NCBI GenBank assembly: GCA_963753975.1 | Contig: CAVWEH010000004.1 | Coordinates: 128,001-192,000, forward strand | Source: an uncultured delta proteobacterium | GTDB taxonomy: Bacteria > Desulfobacterota > Syntrophia > Syntrophales > Smithellaceae | DNA: 64,000 bases | Direction of reading: 5' to 3' | Part shown: positions 19,637-31,421 of the stretch, piece after piece | Position numbering within the stretch: the first letter of the stretch is position 1 | Layout of the letters: each line of letters opens with the position of its first letter | The notes under the pieces: model-generated | What the model saw: only the letters and a program-made list of their open reading frames with translations | What the model was told of the DNA's origin: nothing | The model's database searches: none | Made by a program: the position numbers and the translations under genes

Positions 19637-22295
19637 TTATCTATATTTGTCCTGCTTTGTCAGTAATTTCTCCAAACCAGAGAAAACTTTGCCCAAATTT
19701 TCCGGTTGTGTGCCACCGGCCTGAGCCATGTCGGAGCGGCCGCCGCCACTGCCGCCCACCAGCGGTGCGAGTTCCTTGATGATGTTTCCGGCGGAATATT
19801 TTCCGGCCAGGTCTTTGGTCACCATACACAAAAGCAACGCTTTCTCTCCGGTCTTACTGCCCAGAAAGATAACGCCGGATTCCATTTTGTCGCGTAGCTT
19901 ATCACCAAAGTCGCGCAGCGTTTTGACATCGGTAATACTCACTTCCGCGGCCAGCACCTTCACTCCGCCGATTTCGCGCGTCTGGCTGAGCAGATCACTG
20001 GAATCCTTGGCGGCGAGTTTTCCTTTGAGGGCTTCAATTTCTTTTTCCAGATCTCTTGCGTGTTTGAGCAATTTTTCGGTTCTGTCCACAAGCTCCAGAG
20101 GATTAGCCTTAAATAATCCGGCGGCTTTTTTGAGTTCTTCTTCCGCCTTCTGCACATGCGTAAGCGCTTCCTTACCGGTGACCGCTTCGATTCTGCGCAC
20201 ACCCGCGGCTATGGCCGATTCGTGGATAACCTTGAACAAGCCGATCTCGCCTGTTTGCTGCACATGCGTGCCGCCGCAAAGCTCCATGCTCATCTCGCCC
20301 ATTTTGACAATACGGACGGTCGCGCCGTACTTTTCATCAAACACAGCCGTGGCACCGGTTTTAAGCGCGTCTTCCAACGCGCAAACTTCCGTCTGCACGG
20401 GCAGATTTTTGCGAATCATATCATTGGCGATATCTTCCACACGCTGTAGTTCTTCATCACTGATTTTAGAAAAGTGAGTAAAGTCGAAACGCAACCGTTC
20501 GGCTGTCACCTGCGAGCCGGATTGTTTGATGTGATCGCCCAGCACGGCTTTGAGCGCTGCCTGTAAAATATGCGTGCCGGAGTGATTGGCCTGAGCCGCC
20601 CTTCTTTTTTCGGCATCGACAATCAAATGCGCTTTATCGCCGATTTTAATATTTCCCTTTTGCACAATACCTTTATGCACGATAAAATTTTCCACCGGCT
20701 TTTTGGTCTCGAGCACAGCAAAGTCAAAACCTGCTCCTTTTAAAAAGCCCGAGTCACCTATCTGACCACCGGACTCACCATAAAATGGAGTTCTCTCTAC
20801 AACGATTTCCGCCTTCTGGCCTTCGCTTGCACTATCGGCAAGTTTCCCATTCACAAAAATAGTCGCAATACTCGAATCTCCTATAGTCACTCCCTCATAA
20901 CCGCAAAACTCACTCGATATGCCGGAGCTGGAAGCTTTCAGGTAGCACTCAGCCACTGCTTCTTCACCGCTCCCCTTCCAGGCGCCACGCGCTCTTTCGC
21001 GCTGCTTCTCCATCTCGGCTTCAAAGCCAGCCGTGTCGAGTGTAAAATTATCTTTTTTAACAATGTCCGCAGTCAAGTCGGTGGGGAAACCAAAGGTATC
21101 GTAGAGTTTGAAAACCAGTGTGCCGGGTAGAACCGATTTCGCCCGCTTCTTTCAGGGCTGTCGTTTCTTCCTGTAAAATGCGCAATCCGGCGTCGAGCGT
21201 TTCCATAAAACGCTGTTCTTCGTTGAGAATAACTTTGGTAATGTAAGAAGCCTTATCGGCTAGGTCGGGATAGGTATATTTCATCATATCAATGACGACT
21301 CGCGCGCTTTCGTGTAAGAACGGTTTGTTGATGCCCAGCATCTTGCCATGACGCGCGGCGCGGCGCAAGATGCGCCTGAGCACATAACCGCGGCCATCGT
21401 TCGCGGGCAGGATACCATCCCCAATTAAAAAAGTCACAGCACGGCTGTGATCGGCAATGACCCGGATAGAGACATCATTATCGGCATTTTTACCGTAGGT
21501 CTTATCGGATATTTTTTCCATAAGCCGTATCAGGGGAGTGAAAAAATCAGTATCATAGTTACTCTTCACGCCCTGAATAACAGCCGTCAAGCGCTCCAGT
21601 CCCATGCCCGTATCAATGCTGGGCTTGACCAGCGGATTTAATTTTCCGCTTTCATCGCGATCAAACTGGGTGAAGACAAGATTCCAGATTTCCAGATAGC
21701 GGTCACAACCGCAGTCCAGACCGCATTCGGCGCGCCCGCAGCCGGTGCCTTTGCCCTGGTCATAAATGATTTCCGAGCAGGGGCCGCAGGGGCCGGTCTC
21801 CCCCATCATCCAGAAATTACTTTTTTTACCCATGCGGACGATACGCTCTTTCGGCACTTTCATCTTTTTATTCCAGACAGCGAAGGCATCATCGTCTTCT
21901 TCATAAATCGTGACCCACAGCTTCTCTCTGGGCAATTTAACAATGTCGATCAAGTATTCCCATGCCCAGGCAATTGCTTCTTCTTTGAAATAATCACCGA
22001 ACGAAAAATTGCCGAGCATTTCGAAAAAAGTATGATGCCGCGCGGTAACGCCGACATTTTCGAGGTCGTTGTGTTTTCCGCCGGCACGCACGCATTTCTG
22101 GCAGGATGCCGCCTTCGTATAGCCTCTTTTTTCGAGACCCAGAAACGCGTTTTTGAATTGCACCATACCGGCATTGGTGAAAAGCAGGGTCGGATCATCT
22201 TTGGGAATCAAAGCGGAGCTAGCCACTCGTGTATGTCCCTTAGCTTCAAAATACTTTAAAAAACTTTCCCTGATTTCACTCCCCGTTTTCGGCAT
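19637..22295 (-). CDS. alaS: alanine--tRNA ligase, +1 frameshift near 21140
   Basis: [37 protein letters not shown] in the first ORF; ELCGGTH, GGSGGGR in the second; [10 protein letters not shown] spans the join. Confidence 0.95.
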
Positions 22296-22774
22296 TAATT
22301 TCCTCCTGTGCTGTCTTTCCCAGTTTTTTTAAGATCAAGCCCGGCGGGAAACCACGACCCATCAGGCTTTGAAATATCCTTTTTTTCGCCTGCAAATCCA
22401 AAATATCTAATTTTTTTCTTGATGCTTTTTTTTTAATTAAAAATGCAATGGCCTCTTCTTCCGAAATTTCCCGGCGTGCCTTCGTCTACCGCGGCTGGTA
22501 TTAATTCCGCCTCCACACCTTTTTCCCGCAGATTGACAAATATTTTTTTATCTCCCCAGAGCTTATTTACAGCAAGATCCCGTGCCCTTTGAACGGCAAA
22601 AGACGCATCATTTAGATAATTCAATTCGCGAAGTTTTTCCAGAGCTTCTTTGACCACAGCTGCGGAAAAGCCTTTCTCCCGCAGCTTTTTCCCCAACTCT
22701 TTTTCCGCGTGCGGACGCAATGATAAAAGACGGTAAGCTTTTTGTTTGGCTGCCGCCAGATCTAAAACCTTCAC
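22276..22774 (-). CDS. recX: regulatory protein RecX, +1 frameshift near 22480
   Basis: [22 protein letters not shown], downstream of recA; the other frame continues LMGRGF to a stop at 22276. Confidence 0.8.
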
Positions 22775-23793
22775 TTATCATCTTCCTGCTCTTTAGCCAC
22801 GATACCCAGCTTGGCTCGTACATCATTTTCCACTGCCGTCATAATATCCGGATTATCTTTTAAAAAGATACGGGAATTATCCCGGCCCTGCCCTATTCTA
22901 TCTCCCTTGTATGAATACCAGGCGCCGCTTTTCTCAATGATACCATTGTCGGCCGCCAGATCCAGCACATCGCCTTCGCGCGATATACCTTCGCCGAAGA
23001 TGATATCAAATTCCGCTTCTCGGAAAGGTGGGGCCAGCTTATTTTTTACAACTTTAACCTTGGTTCTGAACCCGATGACGTCCTGACCGTTCTTTATAGA
23101 AGTCATTTTTCTAATATCGAGCCGCTGCGAAGAGTAAAATTTTAAAGCATTGCCGCCTGTTGTTGTTTCCGGATTGCCGAAGAAAACGCCGATCTTCATG
23201 CGTAACTGATTAATAAAGATAACTGTGGTCTTGGATTTACTGATACTGCCGGTAAGCTTGCGTAGCGCCTGCGACATAAGCCTTGCCTGCAATCCCATTT
23301 GCGCGTCGCCCATTTCACCTTCCAATTCGGCCTTGGGAACGAGTGCCGCCACGGAGTCAATTACCAAAACATCCAAAGCACCGCTACGCACAAGAGTCTC
23401 CGCAATTTCCAATGCCTGCTCACCCGTGTCCGGTTGCGATATAAGGAGATCATCCGTGTTGACGCCAATTTTTTTGGCATAGGTCACATCCAAAGCGTGT
23501 TCGGCATCAATGTAAGCGGCAAGTCCATTTTTCTTTTGCGCCTCAGCGACAATGTGCAGCGCCAGTGTGGTCTTTCCGCCTGATTCCGGCCCGTAGATTT
23601 CAATAACCCTTCCACGCGGGACGCCAAACGTCCCTAAAGCAATATCCAGGCTAAGCGAACCTGTGGATATTGCCGGAACATCGGCAACCCGCTCCGAGCC
23701 ACCCAGTTTCATAATCGATCCCTTGCCAAATTGCCTTTCTATCTGAGTGATCGCCAAATCAACAGCTTTTGATCTGTCTAAATCTGCGCACAT
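22771..23793 (-). CDS. recA: recombinase A
   Basis: [47 protein letters not shown] 9 nt before the ATG at 23793. Confidence 0.98.
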
Positions 23794-23859
23794 AGTATCA
23801 TGACCTCCATTAATTTTATTGTTTGTAGTTTTTTTAGTTTTCATTGCTATCCTTAATTT

Positions 23860-24442
23860 TTAACCGGAAAAAGAAAACTTTTCCAGCTTTGTATAAATTG
23901 CTCCCTGTCTTGCCAGTTTACTTTCAAATAAAATTATTTCCGAACAGCTAAATTCACCCGCGATGAAATCGTTATACTTATTCAGAGCCTCGCTGATTTC
24001 CCACTAATTCCGGCGGGATTTTAATCCGGCCCAAGGTCAAATGAGCGCGGAATGGCCGGTTTTCCCGCGGAAAACCAATTCCTTCAAAATCCATATCTGA
24101 TGTAGTCTGCAATGCGGTCAATTTTTCCGTATCACCCGCCGTTCCCAGCCAGAGAACACGCGGCCTTCGGGCACCGGGGAAAACACCTAGCTTTTCTATA
24201 GTCAAAGACAGAGTCGGCACCGAAGCTACTTGCTTTTTCATTATAGCGCAAATATTTTTTACATCGTCTTGATCAATGTAGCCGAAAAATTTTAATGTAA
24301 TATGATTGCCTTGCGGTCTTGTCCAACTTATCTTTCCTTTTATTTCTTTTTTTAAATTCTCCTGCAGGCGGGAAACAGCCTCGAGGACATCATCTCCCGG
24401 CTCAATTGCTAAAAAAGCCCGTATCTTCTTTTCTTTTTCCAT
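23860..24442 (-). CDS. thpR: RNA 2',3'-cyclic phosphodiesterase, +1 frameshift near 23998
   Basis: RAFLAI, two HxT motifs (HITL, HLTL), GVFP..RRPRVLW; tail FESKL...GAIYT in another frame. Confidence 0.85.
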
Positions 24443-24448
24443 TTGCCA

Positions 24449-25700
24449 TTAACCTTTTCTCTGTAAATAATCTTTGATCATCATCAAAGCCGCTTCTGAG
24501 AAAACATGTTTGTTTCTTTTACGATCCCAGCGAAAAGTGTAATGGCGGCAAATAGTCTGCTTGGAGTCGGCCAGCGCCAGATAAACAGTGCCTACGGGCT
24601 TATCAATGCTCCCGCCTGTTGGACCGGCAATGCCGGTGGAGGAAAGGCCCAAATCAGTGCCGGCAACTCTGCGGATTCCTTCCGCCATCGACCGCGCAGT
24701 CTCTTCGCTTACTGCTCCATACTTTTCAATTACGCCCGCCGGAATGCCGAGCAAATTCACCTTGGCGGCATTGCTGTAAGCCACGACCGCCCGTTCGAAA
24801 AAAGCCGAACTTCCCGCCACATCGGTTAATCGATTAGATATCAGTCCACCGGTGCACGACTCCGCCACAGCCAAGGTCATTTTCTTCTCGATCAACAGAG
24901 CGGCGACAATTTCTTCGAGAGTTTCCTCGCCGTAATGAAATATATATTTTTTAAGCCGCTTGGTTATTTCATCTCTGCGCTATCTTTAATTTATCCTGGG
25001 CCTCTTTAAGAGATTTCCGGCGCGATATCAAAACAAGATGATTTTCAGGGAAAACAGGATAAAAACCAACGCTCACCTCCAAAGAATTAAAATCGATGTC
25101 TTTCAGAGCGTCGTCAACAGCCGCTTCGGAAAGCCCGAAAGTCTTGATGGTTTGTTTGGCAAAATGCCGTTCGTCTTGCGGGAAATATCTGCGCAAAACA
25201 GGAATAACGCCTTCCGGCAACATCCTTCTCATCTCCGCGGGAACTCCGGGAATAACAAAAATAATTTTTCCTTCTGCCGTTCTAAGAGCAAAACCGGCTG
25301 CCGTTCCTATCGGATTGGCAATAATTTCTGCACCGAGAGGGAACATGGCCTGCTTAGCGTTATTTTCTACCCAGCGTAAATTGTATTTGGCAAACCTTTC
25401 TTTGATGCCGCGCAAAACGGTTTCATCAGTGTATAACGGCAAGTCGAAAGCCTGAGCGATAGCGGCAGTTGTTATATCGTCGGCAGTCGGTCCCAGACCT
25501 CCTGTGCAAATTACGGCATCCGTCATCGGCAACAAATAATTTAAACGGTTTTTAATCGCTTCAAAATCATCGCCCACCGACATTATAGCTTCGACGTGCC
25601 AGCCCTGCTGATTCACTTCGCGCGCGATAAACGAAGAATTGGTATCAACAGTGCGGCCGTTCATCAATTCGTTGCCTATGGTTAAGATGCCGATTTTCAT
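24449..25700 (-). CDS. cinA: competence/damage-inducible protein CinA (MoCF + PncC domains), +1 frameshift near 24974
   Basis: IGNEL..G..VDTN, GGLGPTADD, PGVP.EM; then AESCTGG, GAVSEETA, TGIAGP.GG. Confidence 0.9.
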
Positions 25701-26152
25701 ATCACTCCAAAAAATACCAGTAACCACATCAATAGCCCTGCATAAATCCCGGCGGCAACATCGTCCAGAACAATGCCCAAACCGCCGGCTATTTTTTGCA
25801 GATCGCGGATGGGGAAAGGCTTTAAAATATCAAAAATCCGAAAAAGAATGAACCCGACCAGAAGATGCAACCCCGTTATGGTCACAGGCAGCATCGCCAC
25901 TTGAAAACCGGCAATTTCGTCAATCACAATGCGTTGATCATCTTTTGTCTGATAAATTTTTTCTGCAAGTCCGGCAACATAAACGGCAAGACCCGTGAGG
26001 GCGATCACAATCAAAAGCCGCAATAACCAGGGCAAATATCCGCAAATAAAGCAAATCCCGACGCCAATCAATGTGCCTGCGGTTCCGGGAGCGACAGGAG
26101 AGAGCCCGGAAGCAAAACCCGTGGCCAAGAACTTTATCAACTTTTCACTCAT
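25697..26152 (-). CDS. pgpA: phosphatidylglycerophosphatase A
   Basis: APGTAGT, IVIDE, FRIFDILKPFPI, GIVLDDVAAG. Confidence 0.92.
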   Translation of the reverse strand: MSEKLIKFLATGFASGLSPVAPGTAGTLIGVGICFICGYLPWLLRLLIVIALTGLAVYVAGLAEKIYQTKDDQRIVIDEIAGFQVAMLPVTITGLHLLVGFILFRIFDILKPFPIRDLQKIAGGLGIVLDDVAAGIYAGLLMWLLVFFGVI

Positions 26153-26317: not shown

Positions 26318-26346
26318 TTGACAATAGAACAATCGTTCTATACCAT
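26318..26346 (+). promoter_or_regulatory. sigma70 promoter with palindromic SOS-box-like operator in the spacer
   Basis: TTGACA (26318-23), 17 nt, TACCAT (26341-46); spacer contains TAGAAC-AATC-GTTCTA (26325-26340). Confidence 0.8.
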
Positions 26347-26353
26347 ACCTTCC

Positions 26354-26941
26354 ATGAAAGTCAAGCGAACTTTACCGGATGTGGAGAAAAAATTTTCCGC
26401 CTTTTTCCGCGCCAACCGGCGTATGCCGACATACTCAGAAGCGGCTGAAATCATTGACGTGCATTCCAAAAGCGTCGTCCACTTCTGGGTAAAAAAGATG
26501 CTGGCCTCCAGGTTTCTGCAAAAGGACGCCAAAGGTTTTTTATCACCGGCGCGCTTATCGCTGGGCTTGCCTCTGGCCGGAGAAGTTTGCGCTGGTTTTC
26601 CTTCACCGGCGGAAGAGGAATTGCGCGACGTCATTTCCTTTGACGAATATCTTGTTGCGCATCCGGAAACATCGTTTCTGCTTTCCGTCACCGGCGATTC
26701 CATGATCGGCGAAGGCATCAGAGAAAAAGATTTAGTAATTGTAGAAAGAGGCCGGGAGCCGAAAAACGGCGATATCATTCTGGCCGAAGTGGACGGAAAC
26801 TGGACTATGAAGTATTTTCGCAAAAAAGGAAAGACGGTAACGCTAGAGGCGGCCAATCCCAAATATCCCCCGATCGTACCGGAGAAGGAATTGCGCATTG
26901 CCGGCGTCATTACGGCGGTGGTTCGGAAATATCACAAGTAA
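26354..26941 (+). CDS. LexA/UmuD-family S24 autopeptidase regulator with N-terminal HTH
   Basis: HTH-like RMPTYSE...SKSVVH; cleavage site CAG-FPSPA; catalytic GDSM and TMKY. The track's TTG start is the -35 box, so the ATG at 26354 is preferred. Confidence 0.88.
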   Translation: MKVKRTLPDVEKKFSAFFRANRRMPTYSEAAEIIDVHSKSVVHFWVKKMLASRFLQKDAKGFLSPARLSLGLPLAGEVCAGFPSPAEEELRDVISFDEYLVAHPETSFLLSVTGDSMIGEGIREKDLVIVERGREPKNGDIILAEVDGNWTMKYFRKKGKTVTLEAANPKYPPIVPEKELRIAGVITAVVRKYHK

Positions 26942-27068
26942 TTATTGCGGCGGCGCGCATCTGTAAAACATATTGACACAAGGCGGCGACAATGATTTTA
27001 TCATTTCAATTCTTCTATTGTTTTCAGATCCGGTTTTACATGCATAAAAATGTTTGGGGAACTCGGAA

Positions 27069-27218
27069 ATGATGCACAATTCGGAAAACCAACCACCTTT
27101 GACCCACCATTCATTTGCCACTCACCTTCTTAAAGATGAGGATACACACGAAAACGTCTTATACAGAAAGAAACCGTCTGTGTTTACAGAATTATACAGA
27201 CTGTGTAAACATTGTTAA
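27069..27218 (+). pseudogene. eroded tyrosine recombinase (integron integrase-like) C-terminal remnant
   Basis: 49-codon ORF MMHNSENQPPLTHHSFATHLLKDEDTH...; HSFATHLL (27108-27131) is the box II motif of XerC/D/IntI recombinases. Confidence 0.6.
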
Positions 27219-27220
27219 GC
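27159..27220 (+). other. attI-like integron recombination site
   Basis: TAAACATT-GTTAAGC core (G at 27214), direct repeats TTATACAGA (27159-67, 27192-200), inverted pair TGTTTACA/TGTAAACA; directly precedes cassette 1. Confidence 0.6.
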
Positions 27221-27223
27221 CAT

Positions 27224-27853
27224 ATGGATAAATTTAATTTTCAAAATCTGAGACAATTTGATCTCACTTTTCCTAGCCATTGGTTAGAAGGTGAAGACAG
27301 AGATCAAGCATTTCAAATATCCCACACATTAAGTATGATTCGCAGTTTATTCACCGAAGCTGTTGCTTCCTACGCTTTATTTCAACCACTTACGGCTGAG
27401 AATATTGACGACCATATAGAAAAATGGACAAATAATGATGAAACACCATATGAACGTTGTTTAAATGGTATTTATGCTAAAGCTTTTGTATTCGCTTTAG
27501 ACGGCATTGAGAAACTATTCAATCACCTAGTCACAAGTTATAGCTCACCAGAAAAAGTTAAGCATTTGCACGAGGAATACAGAAGACTATTCGGTCATCT
27601 TAAGCACATCCGCGATTCAGCCATACATATTGAAGATCGTGGCCGGGGGAAAACGCGAAAGCAGAAACCACTTGATACACATATCGTACTTTTGGGTTGC
27701 TTTATTGAAAAGCGTTACACTTTTACTGGTGAAGATGGAAGACAATATGAAGTTGAGATTTCTGAGTCTACATTAAACAAAGCAAAAGCAATTCTCCAAG
27801 AGGCCATTAATTCATATTCATGGATCGAAGTAGGGAAAATAAATTTGGTTTAA
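27224..27853 (+). CDS. cassette 1: hypothetical protein with HEPN-like Rx4H motif
   Basis: ORF fills the cassette and its stop lies in the attC R'' box; LKHIRDSAIHIEDR. Confidence 0.75.
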   Translation: MDKFNFQNLRQFDLTFPSHWLEGEDRDQAFQISHTLSMIRSLFTEAVASYALFQPLTAENIDDHIEKWTNNDETPYERCLNGIYAKAFVFALDGIEKLFNHLVTSYSSPEKVKHLHEEYRRLFGHLKHIRDSAIHIEDRGRGKTRKQKPLDTHIVLLGCFIEKRYTFTGEDGRQYEVEISESTLNKAKAILQEAINSYSWIEVGKINLV

Positions 27854-27902
27854 CCAGGCAATCCAGCCGATCGCTACGCTCCGGCTGATTTTTTCGTTAT
27901 GT
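27848..27902 (+). repeat. attC site 1 (55 bp)
   Basis: GTTTAAC...AATCCAGCCG...CGGCTGATT...GTTATGT. Confidence 0.88.
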
Positions 27903-27915
27903 GTCAGGAGGATAA

Positions 27916-28548
27916 ATGCAAAGGAAAACTTTCTGGAAGGCAATTTCCCTTTTTGAATCGGGGCTCTCAGCAGCCGAGTGGGCTTGGAGAATTATAGTCG
28001 TTATATTCATTGGCACTAGCGGAACAGTAACCGCATTTGTGGCTAAAGCAGACCCTGTACTCAAAGCACTTGGTCCTATCTATTGGATTGGTGCAGGAGT
28101 AATTATGGCGCTGGTAATTTCTGTTGTTCTGTTCCTCATAAAGTCCTCACAACTCAAACAGAGCGAAGCGGATCTTAATCGAGCACTGGCTATTCCGCGA
28201 AGCACGGTTAACCCGCTATTGAATAGCTTTACTGATTCAATAATACCCGTCGAAGACTTGAGATTACCGAGGACTCAATTGCACGAAAATAAGCATTTCT
28301 TGAGATGTAAGTTCGTTGGCCCTGCCGCCATCGCAATTTTAGGAGGCACCTATGTTCGCAGTGGCTTCCTTGATAGCGGTGATGTCATAGCACTTCCAGA
28401 TAATGTCGCTCTCTCGGGTATCGTTGTACTCAAGAACTGCACGGTTGAAGATTGCGAGTTCATACGAACAACGATTCTTGTAGATCAAGTTACCGCAAAA
28501 GGTATTGCGACTGTTCCAGGTGCGCAAGTCAAGGGAATGCGCACATAA
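27916..28548 (+). CDS. cassette 2: hypothetical protein, two N-terminal TM helices and a beta-rich C-terminal domain
   Basis: SD AGGAGG, hydrophobic segments, stop in attC R'' box. Confidence 0.78.
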   Translation: MQRKTFWKAISLFESGLSAAEWAWRIIVVIFIGTSGTVTAFVAKADPVLKALGPIYWIGAGVIMALVISVVLFLIKSSQLKQSEADLNRALAIPRSTVNPLLNSFTDSIIPVEDLRLPRTQLHENKHFLRCKFVGPAAIAILGGTYVRSGFLDSGDVIALPDNVALSGIVVLKNCTVEDCEFIRTTILVDQVTAKGIATVPGAQVKGMRT

Positions 28549-28596
28549 CCAGTCAATACAGCCGATCGTTTACTCCGGCTGATTTCTTCGTTGGAC
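28543..28596 (+). repeat. attC site 2 (54 bp)
   Basis: ACATAAC...AATACAGCCG...CGGCTGATT...GTTGGAC. Confidence 0.9.
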
Positions 28597-28608
28597 GAAA
28601 GGAAATAT

Positions 28609-29202
28609 ATGAAAAGACAATGGCTTTATTTTGTAATAGTAGTCGTTTTAGCTATTACTCCGGCACTTAGTATTGCTGCTGACTCCATTCTGGGTGAATG
28701 GATTTCTGTGGAAAGGTCAAAGGGAGGTTTAGGCGCGGCAAAGAATTATAATAAAGACGGGACTGTTCAAGCCACTTTTGGTGCGCTCGTAGATTTCAAG
28801 TACAAGGTCACCGGCAAAAAAATTACTCTTTCATTTCCTGAGGCAGATGACATTGTACAGAAGTTTGAAATCAAAGATTCCAAACTTGTACTGACAGACG
28901 CGACGGGCAACAAACAGGAATTAACGCGCATTTCAGACGATGCAATAACAGGACTACTCGGAAAATGGACGGGTGTTCACTACACCGGGGCAAAACAAAT
29001 TCTTCACTTTACTGCAGCCCACAACTGTTATTTAGCAGTTCCCATGATCTCAGCAGACGGTACGTATATCATAATGGGGGATATACTGACCGAGTCATAT
29101 AAAGATAAAGGCTCACAAAATTACAAATGGACAATTCGAGACAATGTCCTAATCCTTACAGACGGCCAAGGCAAGACTGAAAAATACATGAGAAAAAAAT
29201 GA
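28609..29202 (+). CDS. cassette 3: exported protein with two lipocalin-like (LG.W) repeats
   Basis: Signal peptide MKRQWLYFVIVVVLAITPALSIA; ILGEW and LLGKW repeats. Confidence 0.75.
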   Translation: MKRQWLYFVIVVVLAITPALSIAADSILGEWISVERSKGGLGAAKNYNKDGTVQATFGALVDFKYKVTGKKITLSFPEADDIVQKFEIKDSKLVLTDATGNKQELTRISDDAITGLLGKWTGVHYTGAKQILHFTAAHNCYLAVPMISADGTYIIMGDILTESYKDKGSQNYKWTIRDNVLILTDGQGKTEKYMRKK

Positions 29203-29204
29203 CC

Positions 29205-29259
29205 GTCCAACAATGGCAATACAGCCGATCGTTTACTCCGGCTGATTTTTTCGTTAGGC
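29205..29259 (+). repeat. attC site 3 (55 bp)
   Basis: GTCCAAC...AATACAGCCG...CGGCTGATT...GTTAGGC. Confidence 0.9.
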
Positions 29260-29300
29260 AGTGACCGAATCTATTCACACCCGAAAGGAGATTTTCCACG

Positions 29301-30062
29301 ATGGACATTCCACGGATCTTCAACATCACTGAAAGTGCTCACCGCATCCATGACCCATTCACACCCGAAAAGCTCGCCACTCTCGGCGCGGCGCTGCGTC
29401 TGGAAACGGGAACCCGAGTGCTCGACCTCGGCAGCGGTTCGGGGGAGATGCTGTGCACCTGGGCACGCGATTACGGAGTCATCGGCACCGGCATCGACAT
29501 GAGCCAGTTGTTCACCGAGCAAGCGAAACTCCGCGCTGAAGAACTCGGCGTCGCCGATCAAGTCAAGTTCATCCATGGCGATGCTGCCGGCTACGTCTCT
29601 GACGACAAGGCCGGTGTGGCAGCCTGTCTCGGTGCCACGTGGATCGCTGGGGGAGTCGCCGGCACCATCGAGCTTCTGGCGCAGAGCCTCCGCCCCGGAG
29701 GGATCATCCTCATCGGCGAGCCCTACTGGCGGCAGTTACCGCCGACGGAAGATGTTGCCAGGGGGTGTCTTGCCGGCTCAATCTCCGACTTTCTCCTGCT
29801 TCCGGAACTTCTCGCGTCTTTCGGCCACCTCGGCTACGACGTCGTGGAAATGGTTTTGGCAGACCAAGACAGCTGGGACAGATACGAGGCGGCCAAGTGG
29901 CTCACCATGCGCCGATGGCTTGAAGCCAATCCCGACGACGAGTTCGCGAAAGATGTTCGAGCCAAACTAACCTCGGAACCCGAGCGCTACGCCGCTTACA
30001 CGCGTGAATACCTGGGCTGGGGCGTGTTCGCGCTGATGCCTTTAAAGACCATCGGTTATTGA
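29301..30062 (+). CDS. cassette 4: class I SAM-dependent methyltransferase (YjhP-like), GC-rich, no closing attC
   Basis: VLDLGSGSGE motif I, GIDMS, IGEPYW; N-terminus MDIPRIFNITESAHRIH resembles the E. coli YjhP family (from recall). Confidence 0.85.
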   Translation: MDIPRIFNITESAHRIHDPFTPEKLATLGAALRLETGTRVLDLGSGSGEMLCTWARDYGVIGTGIDMSQLFTEQAKLRAEELGVADQVKFIHGDAAGYVSDDKAGVAACLGATWIAGGVAGTIELLAQSLRPGGIILIGEPYWRQLPPTEDVARGCLAGSISDFLLLPELLASFGHLGYDVVEMVLADQDSWDRYEAAKWLTMRRWLEANPDDEFAKDVRAKLTSEPERYAAYTREYLGWGVFALMPLKTIGY

Positions 30063-30107
30063 AATTTTTCGGGCTTTTCAGCTTTTTCTTGCTTTAAAAG
30101 AAGTTTT

Positions 30108-31421
30108 ATGGCTCAACAACTCTTCAGTCTCCATTCCTGGCCGCGCGCTATTGTCCACGTCGACGGCGACGCTTTCTTTACTTCCTGTGAAGAAGTGATT
30201 CATCCGGAACTCAAAGGCAAACCGCTCATCACCGGCGGCGAACGGGGCATTGTGGCCTGCGCCAGTTATGCGGCCAAAAAAATGGGTATCAAACGCGCCG
30301 TGCCTCTCAACGAAGCACGCAAAATCTGCCCGGGCCTGATCATCCTTCCTTCCGATTATGAGACTTACAGCCTGTTTTCACGGCGGATGTTCGACATTAT
30401 GCGCCGCTTCACGCCCGACGTCGAGGAATGCTCGGTGGACGAGGCTTTCGCCGATATCACCGGTATGCGCCGCGCCCTGCACTCCTCCTATGAAGAAATT
30501 GCAGCCATGATGAAAAAAGAAATTGAAAGAGATCTCGGCATCACCGTTTCCGTGGGTGTAAGCATTACCAAGGTGCTCGCCAAGGTTGCCTCTAAATACC
30601 AGAAGCCCTCGGGAATGACGGTCATCAGCGGCAGGGAGATTCCCTCCTACCTTCACGATTTGCCGGTGGAAAAAATCTGGGGGATCGGCCCTGCCACTAC
30701 CAATTATCTCGCCAAGATGGGCATTCGCACCGCGCTTGCTTTCGCCCAACTTCCCGAAAAAATTGTCCTAAAAAAATTCACCAAACCGGGAGTGGAAATC
30801 TGGCAGGAGCTGCGCGGCGAATCCGTTTATGCGGTGACTACCGAAGAAAAAAGTTCCTACGCGTCCATCAGCAAAACCAAGACATTTTCTCCGGCAACGT
30901 CCGATGCCGAATACCTTTTCGCGCAACTGATGCGCAATATGGAATCGGCCTGCATCAAAGCCAGGCGTTATTCTCTCGCGCCGCAAAAAATAATAGTGTT
31001 TCTGAAGAAGAATGATTTCGCTACGACCGACAGTGAAGCGGCCCTTTCTCATCCTTGTGCTTGTCCGCTGGAGTTTACCCACGTCATCCGTGAGCTTTTT
31101 TCGGACTGCTATAATCCACAGGAGCTCTACCGTTCTACCGGTGTCATTCTGCTCGATCTCGCGCCGGACAACAACACTCAGTACACTCTTTTTGACGATC
31201 CCGTGCACGCCGAAAAGATCAAAGATGTTTACGCCGTTGCCGACGAGCTGGGAAAAAAGTTCGGTAAACACGCTCTGCATCTGGGCAGTTCTCACCTGAT
31301 TGAAAAACTCGGCAAAGGACGCCGGGGCTCACCCACCGTACGGGAGCGGACAATTCTCAAAGGCGAGACAAAGCGCCGCCATTTAGGGTTGCCTCTTATC
31401 CATGTAAAAACAGAAGATTAA
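30108..31421 (+). CDS. Y-family DNA polymerase (DinB/UmuC-like)
   Basis: VHVDGDAFF, ASYAAK, SVDEAF, LAKVAS..QKP.G, IWGIG. Confidence 0.92.
   Translation: MAQQLFSLHSWPRAIVHVDGDAFFTSCEEVIHPELKGKPLITGGERGIVACASYAAKKMGIKRAVPLNEARKICPGLIILPSDYETYSLFSRRMFDIMRRFTPDVEECSVDEAFADITGMRRALHSSYEEIAAMMKKEIERDLGITVSVGVSITKVLAKVASKYQKPSGMTVISGREIPSYLHDLPVEKIWGIGPATTNYLAKMGIRTALAFAQLPEKIVLKKFTKPGVEIWQELRGESVYAVTTEEKSSYASISKTKTFSPATSDAEYLFAQLMRNMESACIKARRYSLAPQKIIVFLKKNDFATTDSEAALSHPCACPLEFTHVIRELFSDCYNPQELYRSTGVILLDLAPDNNTQYTLFDDPVHAEKIKDVYAVADELGKKFGKHALHLGSSHLIEKLGKGRRGSPTVRERTILKGETKRRHLGLPLIHVKTED

Follow-up and report, generated by a model that had tools for sequence, protein, structure and literature searches.

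In class 1 (IntI1) and Vibrio (IntIA) integrons, a LexA box (CTGT-N8-ACAG) in the promoter of the integrase ties it to the SOS response, and intI points in the direction opposite to the cassettes with their attI and attC sites, as described in the accessible parts of PMC3108266 and PMC8946536. The reverse integrons of Treponema have intI transcribed toward attI, in the cassette direction (PMC3607928, PMC7691350), and a group with inverted integrases was noted in the accessible text of PMC4889954. In the Treponema example the upstream region, 556 bp long, has a putative promoter of its own, a terminator and no LexA motif; the available parts of the two reports mention no SOS operon context (PMC7691350, PMC3607928). 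Another relevant group is formed by mutagenesis operons in which an autoregulated S24 repressor leads a Y-family polymerase: lexA-imuB-C-polY of G. sulfurreducens, reported to be damage-induced and read as one transcript (PMC6511836), lexA-imuA-imuB-dnaE2, and the operon of Acinetobacter UmuDAb (PMC8565304). For soil and freshwater integrons, including those of delta-proteobacteria, E. coli-type LexA boxes were missing and the restraint of the integrase was left unexplained in the accessible portion of Cambray et al. 2011 (PMC3108266). Here we describe an integron array lying inside a lexA-dinB unit, in a stretch of 64,000 nt (the window) of contig CAVWEH010000004.1 from an uncultured delta proteobacterium of the family Smithellaceae. 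All coordinates are positions in this window, and the host genome is 95% complete in six contigs.

All parts of the locus lie on the + strand, in the order operator promoter, lexA-like gene, integrase remnant, attI, four cassettes with three attC sites, and a Y-family polymerase gene that starts 45 nt past cassette 4. The initial annotation of this DNA, made from the letters alone, had listed the same elements in the same order, and all were seen again; its placement of the array within a lexA-dinB unit agrees with the gene order in the window and with recurrence in relatives. It missed the main point: the gene that follows lexA in intact relatives encodes the integrase. We consider it probable that the window holds a decayed, integrase-less reverse integron, whose family form resides inside a LexA-autoregulated lexA-dinB unit with intI read from the repressor's promoter.

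As in the class 1 and Vibrio elements, the integrase is tied to a LexA-type repressor (predicted here) and comes with attI and attC cassettes. Unlike them, the family unit has intI facing the cassettes, without its own promoter, behind the repressor gene, and a polymerase gene closes the array. The direction is that of the Treponema reverse integrons: the remnant stands on the + strand ahead of attI, and L065, L170 and L302 are intact examples. Taken alone, with three attC sites where two suffice and no intact intI in its neighbourhood or in the rest of the assembly, the window fits a cluster of attC sites lacking an integrase (CALIN) with an intI pseudogene close by, as described in the accessible part of PMC4889954; unlike the clusters described there, it keeps attI, and it stands at a conserved address where relatives hold a complete integron. 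Judged by sequence profiles, attI and attC are recognizable in the window and an intI gene is not. With the lexA-led mutagenesis operons our locus shares a leading S24 repressor gene, predicted to be autoregulated, a Y-family polymerase gene and an operator found only at its own promoter. In contrast to the window, those operons contain no integron in the accessible text of PMC6511836 and PMC8565304, and the window repressor combines a LexA-like N-terminal with a UmuD-like C-terminal domain. Each part is known already, and it is the coupling through operon position that was not found in print. Our literature search covered main texts, few of them from subscription journals, and located no integron within a lexA or umuDC/dinB operon; genome-survey tables might hold cases.

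The arrangement recurs within the family. With an integrase clade delimited at 65% identity or more, 15 of the 116 family genomes searched had a member, and in 13 of these intI directly follows an S24 gene, or the 3' end of one, in the same orientation; in the other two intI stands alone. Two of the 13 lexA-linked genomes have a broken intI and three are cut at a contig end. Behind the lexA-linked intI follow attI, variable cassettes and often dinB, and complete units on one contig were found in L302, L163 and L301 (the last with a frameshifted dinB). In a tree of 40 distinct integrases the clade comprises 23 members (support 99/97), 15 of them behind an S24 gene, six stand-alone and two with too little flank. 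The S24 genes upstream of intI are of three types (GAAC full-length, GGAC full-length and C-terminal only), which are interleaved on the integrase tree. Ten genomes of other families carry a related integrase with no lexA in the fetched flank, eight with attI downstream and nine with a TTGAC motif upstream. In L336, also from another family, an operator promoter precedes the promoter of a stand-alone intI by about 50 nt with no lexA gene, and classical SOS control through a native box is possible there.

An untargeted repressor search gave 80 loci, 14 of them with intI, attI or attC right behind the repressor; all 14 fall among the 31 loci at 70% identity or more, and none among the 49 more distant ones. 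When targeted loci were added, 29 distinct close loci had repressor and polymerase on one contig. Fourteen of these carry attI, attC or intI between the two genes, which in part answers the concern that all relatives would have the genes adjacent; 12 have gaps below 300 nt and three have gaps of 1.0-2.7 kb without a detected site. The attI and attC profiles were our own hidden Markov models (HMMs) seeded from these loci, which favour the seeds and miss divergent sites, and with them the long intervals of L103, L313 and L314 gave no attI or attC site. The variable interval content suggested earlier was found as well: over 19 lexA-dinB intervals the contents mostly differ, and 78 of 80 non-overlapping open reading frames (ORFs) face the same way. 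Intervals of up to 7.2 kb occur between the two genes.

How the integrase is expressed in these units can be judged from the spacers between the S24 stop and the intI start. Among 19 distinct spacers, 12 measure 29-39 nt, one 59 nt and six 113-312 nt, and we found in them neither a promoter nor the LexA box by which an SOS integron is classically recognized; TTGAC occurs in one spacer, 20 nt before the intI start, too close to serve. Because the spacers hold no usable promoter, the operator promoter is the evident source of intI transcripts. Ahead of the cassettes, 24 of 49 platforms carry a motif TTGAT-17-TA.. at a distance of 104-136 nt from the crossover (shuffles gave a mean of 1.3 and a maximum of 5), a likely cassette promoter (Pc). 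With promoterless spacers and a Pc-like motif before attI, the repressor would govern the integrase more plainly than any other part, and the cargo would have its own promoter. The earlier suggestion that the cargo itself is SOS-inducible thus finds no support as it was put, the more so as the window has an operator-free relic promoter candidate.

In the intact unit, the operator promoter is followed by either lexA or a shorter gene resembling umuD, in some loci by an ORF of 77 aa, and then by intI, the putative Pc, attI, the cassettes and dinB. Without its own promoter, intI would be transcribed from that of the repressor, and RecA-triggered self-cleavage of the repressor would switch cassette shuffling on; the cassettes would be driven by their own Pc-like promoter. 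SOS control would then have been acquired through operon position, not through a LexA box in the integrase promoter, and the simplest account is capture of a stand-alone reverse integron by the lexA-dinB operon in this family. Such operon capture would be a concrete answer to the question of integrase restraint, one that box searches upstream of intI would overlook. If this is true, both cassette shuffling and translesion mutagenesis depend on a single promoter in these syntrophs, which are common in sludge and sediments. A further step, to which we give slightly less than an even chance, is that Smithellaceae possess a single damage-inducible 'evolvability' operon, made of a LexA-like repressor with a self-only regulon, an integrase, cassettes and an error-prone polymerase, and that the platform has been passed between the three repressor types without leaving its position behind them. 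One switch would in that case start both gene shuffling and point mutagenesis.

The repressor itself is encoded at 26354..26941 (+). Profile, alignment and fold comparisons show a winged-helix N-terminus plus a UmuD-like S24 domain, which is the architecture of LexA. The best match of the predicted fold is full-length LexA (Foldseek E 3e-13); the C-terminal sequence is equally close to UmuD, and the profile scores lie at both thresholds, with 109 bits for TIGR00498 (just under the cut-off of 110.95) and 110.3 for the UmuD model (cut-off 110). All 43 aligned repressor relatives have A80-G81, S116 and K153, which form the Ala-Gly site and the Ser-Lys dyad. No other S24 gene was found in the genome, and the named close relatives belong to Smithellaceae/Smithella and other Syntrophales. 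Compared with two sisters, the repressor gene has a rough ratio of nonsynonymous to synonymous rates (dN/dS) of 0.04-0.05 and the polymerase gene one of 0.09, so both genes look maintained.

The promoter of this gene is of sigma-70 type (TTGACA-17-TACCAT, 26318..26346, +), with the same layout 5' of most relatives' genes, and the operator, a perfect 16-nt palindrome TAGAAC-N4-GTTCTA (26325..26340), lies between its -35 and -10 elements. A matrix built from 24 relatives' boxes gives this operator 26.4 bits and the next best genomic site 12.1; it is the sole strong site, and the scan found no wider regulon in the genome. E. coli-type boxes CTGT-N8-ACAG were counted at 15 sites genome-wide. Across 122 distinct loci the box type tracks the helix type of the repressor: 75 SKSVV-type repressors go with AGAAC-N4-GTTCT and 26 AKSAA-type ones with AGGAC-N4-GTCCT, with zero cross-over, and in the remainder the box is absent or the helix unparsed. 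From the palindrome position and the helix-box correspondence, the repressor may be predicted to bind this operator, and it would cleave itself with RecA. The operators of the family, GAAC-N4-GTTC or GGAC-N4-GTCC, differ from the class 1 and Vibrio box and provide a candidate operator in two variants for a LexA-like family without a motif in the literature searched.

In L157, L269, L308 and L316, a short S24 gene without a DNA-binding domain, behind a GAAC operator promoter, leads the intI/array/dinB unit; it resembles a genuine umuD whose repressor is encoded at another locus. Many Syntrophales loci have after lexA an ORF of 77 aa with a hydrophobic C-terminus (L065 1593-1826 and homologs), which gave no NCBIfam match. 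Its position suggests an SOS-induced small membrane protein, for example a division inhibitor. A palindrome like the attI core follows the intI stop in most intact platforms (L065, L166, L181 and others), possibly as an integrase binding site or a hairpin.

In the window, about 270 nt of non-coding-looking DNA separates the S24 gene from the first cassette ORF. It begins with a putative promoter, a leader and a start codon; ten codons follow beyond a large deletion, and then comes attI, behind another deletion in which the Pc region was lost. The first part (26973..27071, +) aligns with the 5' portion of a stand-alone-type intI, of which it keeps as relics the putative promoter (TTGACA-17-TG.TTTTAT), the leader and the start codon: positions 26968-27073 are collinear with L295 over 108 nt (score 79 against 18.6 +/- 3.2 for shuffles, 0/1000 of which reached it), and L295 aligns to the intI leader of L031 (score 97, 0/1000 shuffles). 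The candidate promoter, 26973-27001, is free of an operator and lies between lexA and the cassettes, 31 nt past the lexA stop and 240 nt 5' of the first cassette, with a weak -10 (TTTTAT). The remnant HSFATHLLKD (27108..27137, +) agrees with intact IntI in 9 of 11 residues; an origin from XerC/XerD was rejected because it is flanked by the intI leader and attI. The attI site (27151..27220, +) has its predicted crossover at G27214/T27215 and is 88-97% identical to those of L031, L087, L095 and L170-L173. Its counterparts in related loci mostly sit behind an intact intI, and cassette sequence diverges immediately past GTT. Inside attI the minus strand has a promoter match (27218-27191); that this is the divergent integrase promoter of a classical integron was dismissed, because intI lies on the + strand. 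The intact intI that the initial annotation proposed to seek elsewhere was not found anywhere in the host genome; the best TIGR02249 match there has E 1.2e-22, below the cut-off of 265 bits, in comparison with 463.6 and 475.2 bits for relatives.

At the other end of the array, the segment 30040..30107 (+) is a conserved array-end and dinB leader, 74-79% identical to the array-dinB DNA of L085, L087, L097, L098, L103 and L163. Since this 3' end is of the family type and the 5' end of the stand-alone type, the original platform appears to have been replaced or overwritten by a stand-alone-type platform, which would then have lost intI and Pc. The four cassettes would now be frozen. With the Pc-like motif absent from this copy, the relic integrase promoter could stand in for it, and the cassettes are probably read from there and by damage-induced read-through, maybe reaching dinB.

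Several observations weigh against capture of the integron into the lexA-dinB unit. No platform was found in 17 of the 31 close untargeted loci, and in three of the four closest relatives lexA and dinB are adjacent, 185-192 nt apart. Six integrases of the clade are stand-alone, and one of this kind can nest among the lexA-linked ones; many loci retain intI remnants only, so the integrase is often lost. The six long spacers carry hairpin-like inserts that could end transcription. Because the GGAC group is a single clade, the match between helix and operator amounts to about one independent change. The host genome has attI-like sites at seven places and 16 attC at eight places, as counted with profiles partly seeded from these sites, so that platforms land in many spots. 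One could regard the lexA-dinB gap as just a tolerated address, reached by one ancestral landing and kept by descent and recombination between paralogous operons, with no selection for SOS control. Occurrence in one family only, the frequent loss and decay and the stand-alone copies agree with this, as do duplicated lexA 3' fragments ahead of intI or dinB in L300 and L313, which suggest recombination through the conserved S24 domain. We think it unlikely, however: the promoter that outgroup copies carry ahead of intI is missing from the lexA-linked integrases, so that an intact integrase there depends on the promoter of the operon; no stop codon was seen in 15 distinct lexA-linked intI; and even a chance arrival would result in regulation. 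A somewhat smaller chance is left to the view that in the window a stand-alone platform independently entered an ordinary lexA-dinB pair and died there, with no relation to the family unit. The 5' end, the three sisters without an array, and the absence of cassettes 1-3 from all other fetched loci would suit it, but the conserved array-end leader would not. Nor would the fourth closest relative, G006, which belongs to the same supported five-member clade and has an internally deleted intI, a family-type lexA junction, attI and four attC, with no dinB there.

The alternative with most weight, though still doubtful, is that a single SOS-induced transcript covers the entire array and dinB, with damage-inducible cargo and a polymerase level set by the number of cassettes. 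It draws on the common orientation of the ORFs, on the short distance from the lexA stop to the weak relic promoter, on the deletion of Pc in the window and on the lack of any + strand promoter-like site found ahead of dinB. No terminator was found between lexA and the relic promoter, and to this extent the earlier statement that none is obvious holds; for the array it is not certain, given that each attC transcript has a 6-bp GC stem and then a U-rich run. On the other hand, an operator-free promoter candidate precedes the cassettes, intact platforms retain the Pc-like motif, and the intervals are long. Several arrays also hold ORF pairs that by inspection resemble toxin-antitoxin modules, and such modules usually carry their own promoters. 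In class 1 integrons, moreover, attC sites left downstream transcript amounts unchanged and had no terminator effect, according to the part of the review available (PMC8876359 section 11). Misassembly of the window is very improbable. The public runs hold at most 0.13 of the stretch, and the four examined gave relatives and shared cassettes, none spanning the junctions; one read-derived contig joins lexA to dinB with 188 other letters. Assembly frameshift errors are suggested by the alaS-like (19637-22295) and cinA-like (24449-25727) genes, both split into overlapping or adjacent ORFs. Against misassembly, the order of parts at each junction matches independent genomes, the flanks (pgpA and an extracytoplasmic function (ECF) gene) match a sister, and the contig is 378 kb long.

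The cassettes of the decayed integron are diverse. Cassette 1 (27224..27853, +) encodes 209 aa of an unnamed family, in which R130 and H135 (R130-x4-H135) are invariant over 74 aligned homologs of 123 found. The HEPN-like character assigned to it earlier is retained as far as this R-x4-6-H motif goes, and profile and fold searches did not confirm it: there was no Pfam, NCBIfam or PADLOC match, the HEPN_AbiU2 atlas cluster reached 0.76, below the lead level, and the predicted helical bundle gave generic structural matches only (best Z 9.2) and no HEPN fold. Cassette 2 (27916..28548, +) encodes 210 aa with a hydrophobic N-terminus, and profile searches found no family for it. By profile search, cassette 3 (28609..29202, +) is a DUF5640 or lipocalin-like protein and cassette 4 (29301..30062, +) an S-adenosylmethionine-dependent methyltransferase. 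Cassette 4 has lost its last codons, spacer and attC and reads into the dinB leader; its copies in L075, L164, L165 and L301, 89-97% identical, end in ..LMxR* before the spacer and R''.

The attC sites (27848..27902, 28543..28596 and 29205..29259, all +) are repeats of 54-55 nt, spaced 694 and 663 nt, each closing one ORF. Each R'' pairs as reverse complement with the first seven bases of its own cassette, at 6/7, 7/7 and 7/7 positions. Folding energies (z -1.1 to -2.1 against shuffles) are by themselves not beyond chance. Elsewhere in the host genome (G000), platforms with attI, attC or both and without an intact integrase lie at C1:30.5-32.3k, C1:80-83k, C1:190k, C2:28.2k, C4:122-123k, C4:203-207.5k, C5:410-411k, C5:433k and C5:547k; these scattered platforms are small and have at least two attI subtypes. 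The attI type of the window was seen in 46 of the 116 family genomes, often several times in each, and two attI-like sites occur within one array in L170, L264 and L066.

The polymerase that closes the array (30108..31421, +) is DinB-like and scores below every NCBIfam cut-off for Pol IV and UmuC. Apart from tRNAs, Rfam matched nothing in this locus or in three intact ones. On the opposite strand, 166 nt from the lexA promoter, begins a divergent run (22433-26152, -) whose first gene is pgpA (25697..26152, -), retained in this divergent position in many GAAC-type loci. From their translations we take the further genes of the run to be cinA-like and recA (22771-23844), and the single operator might also influence recA expression.

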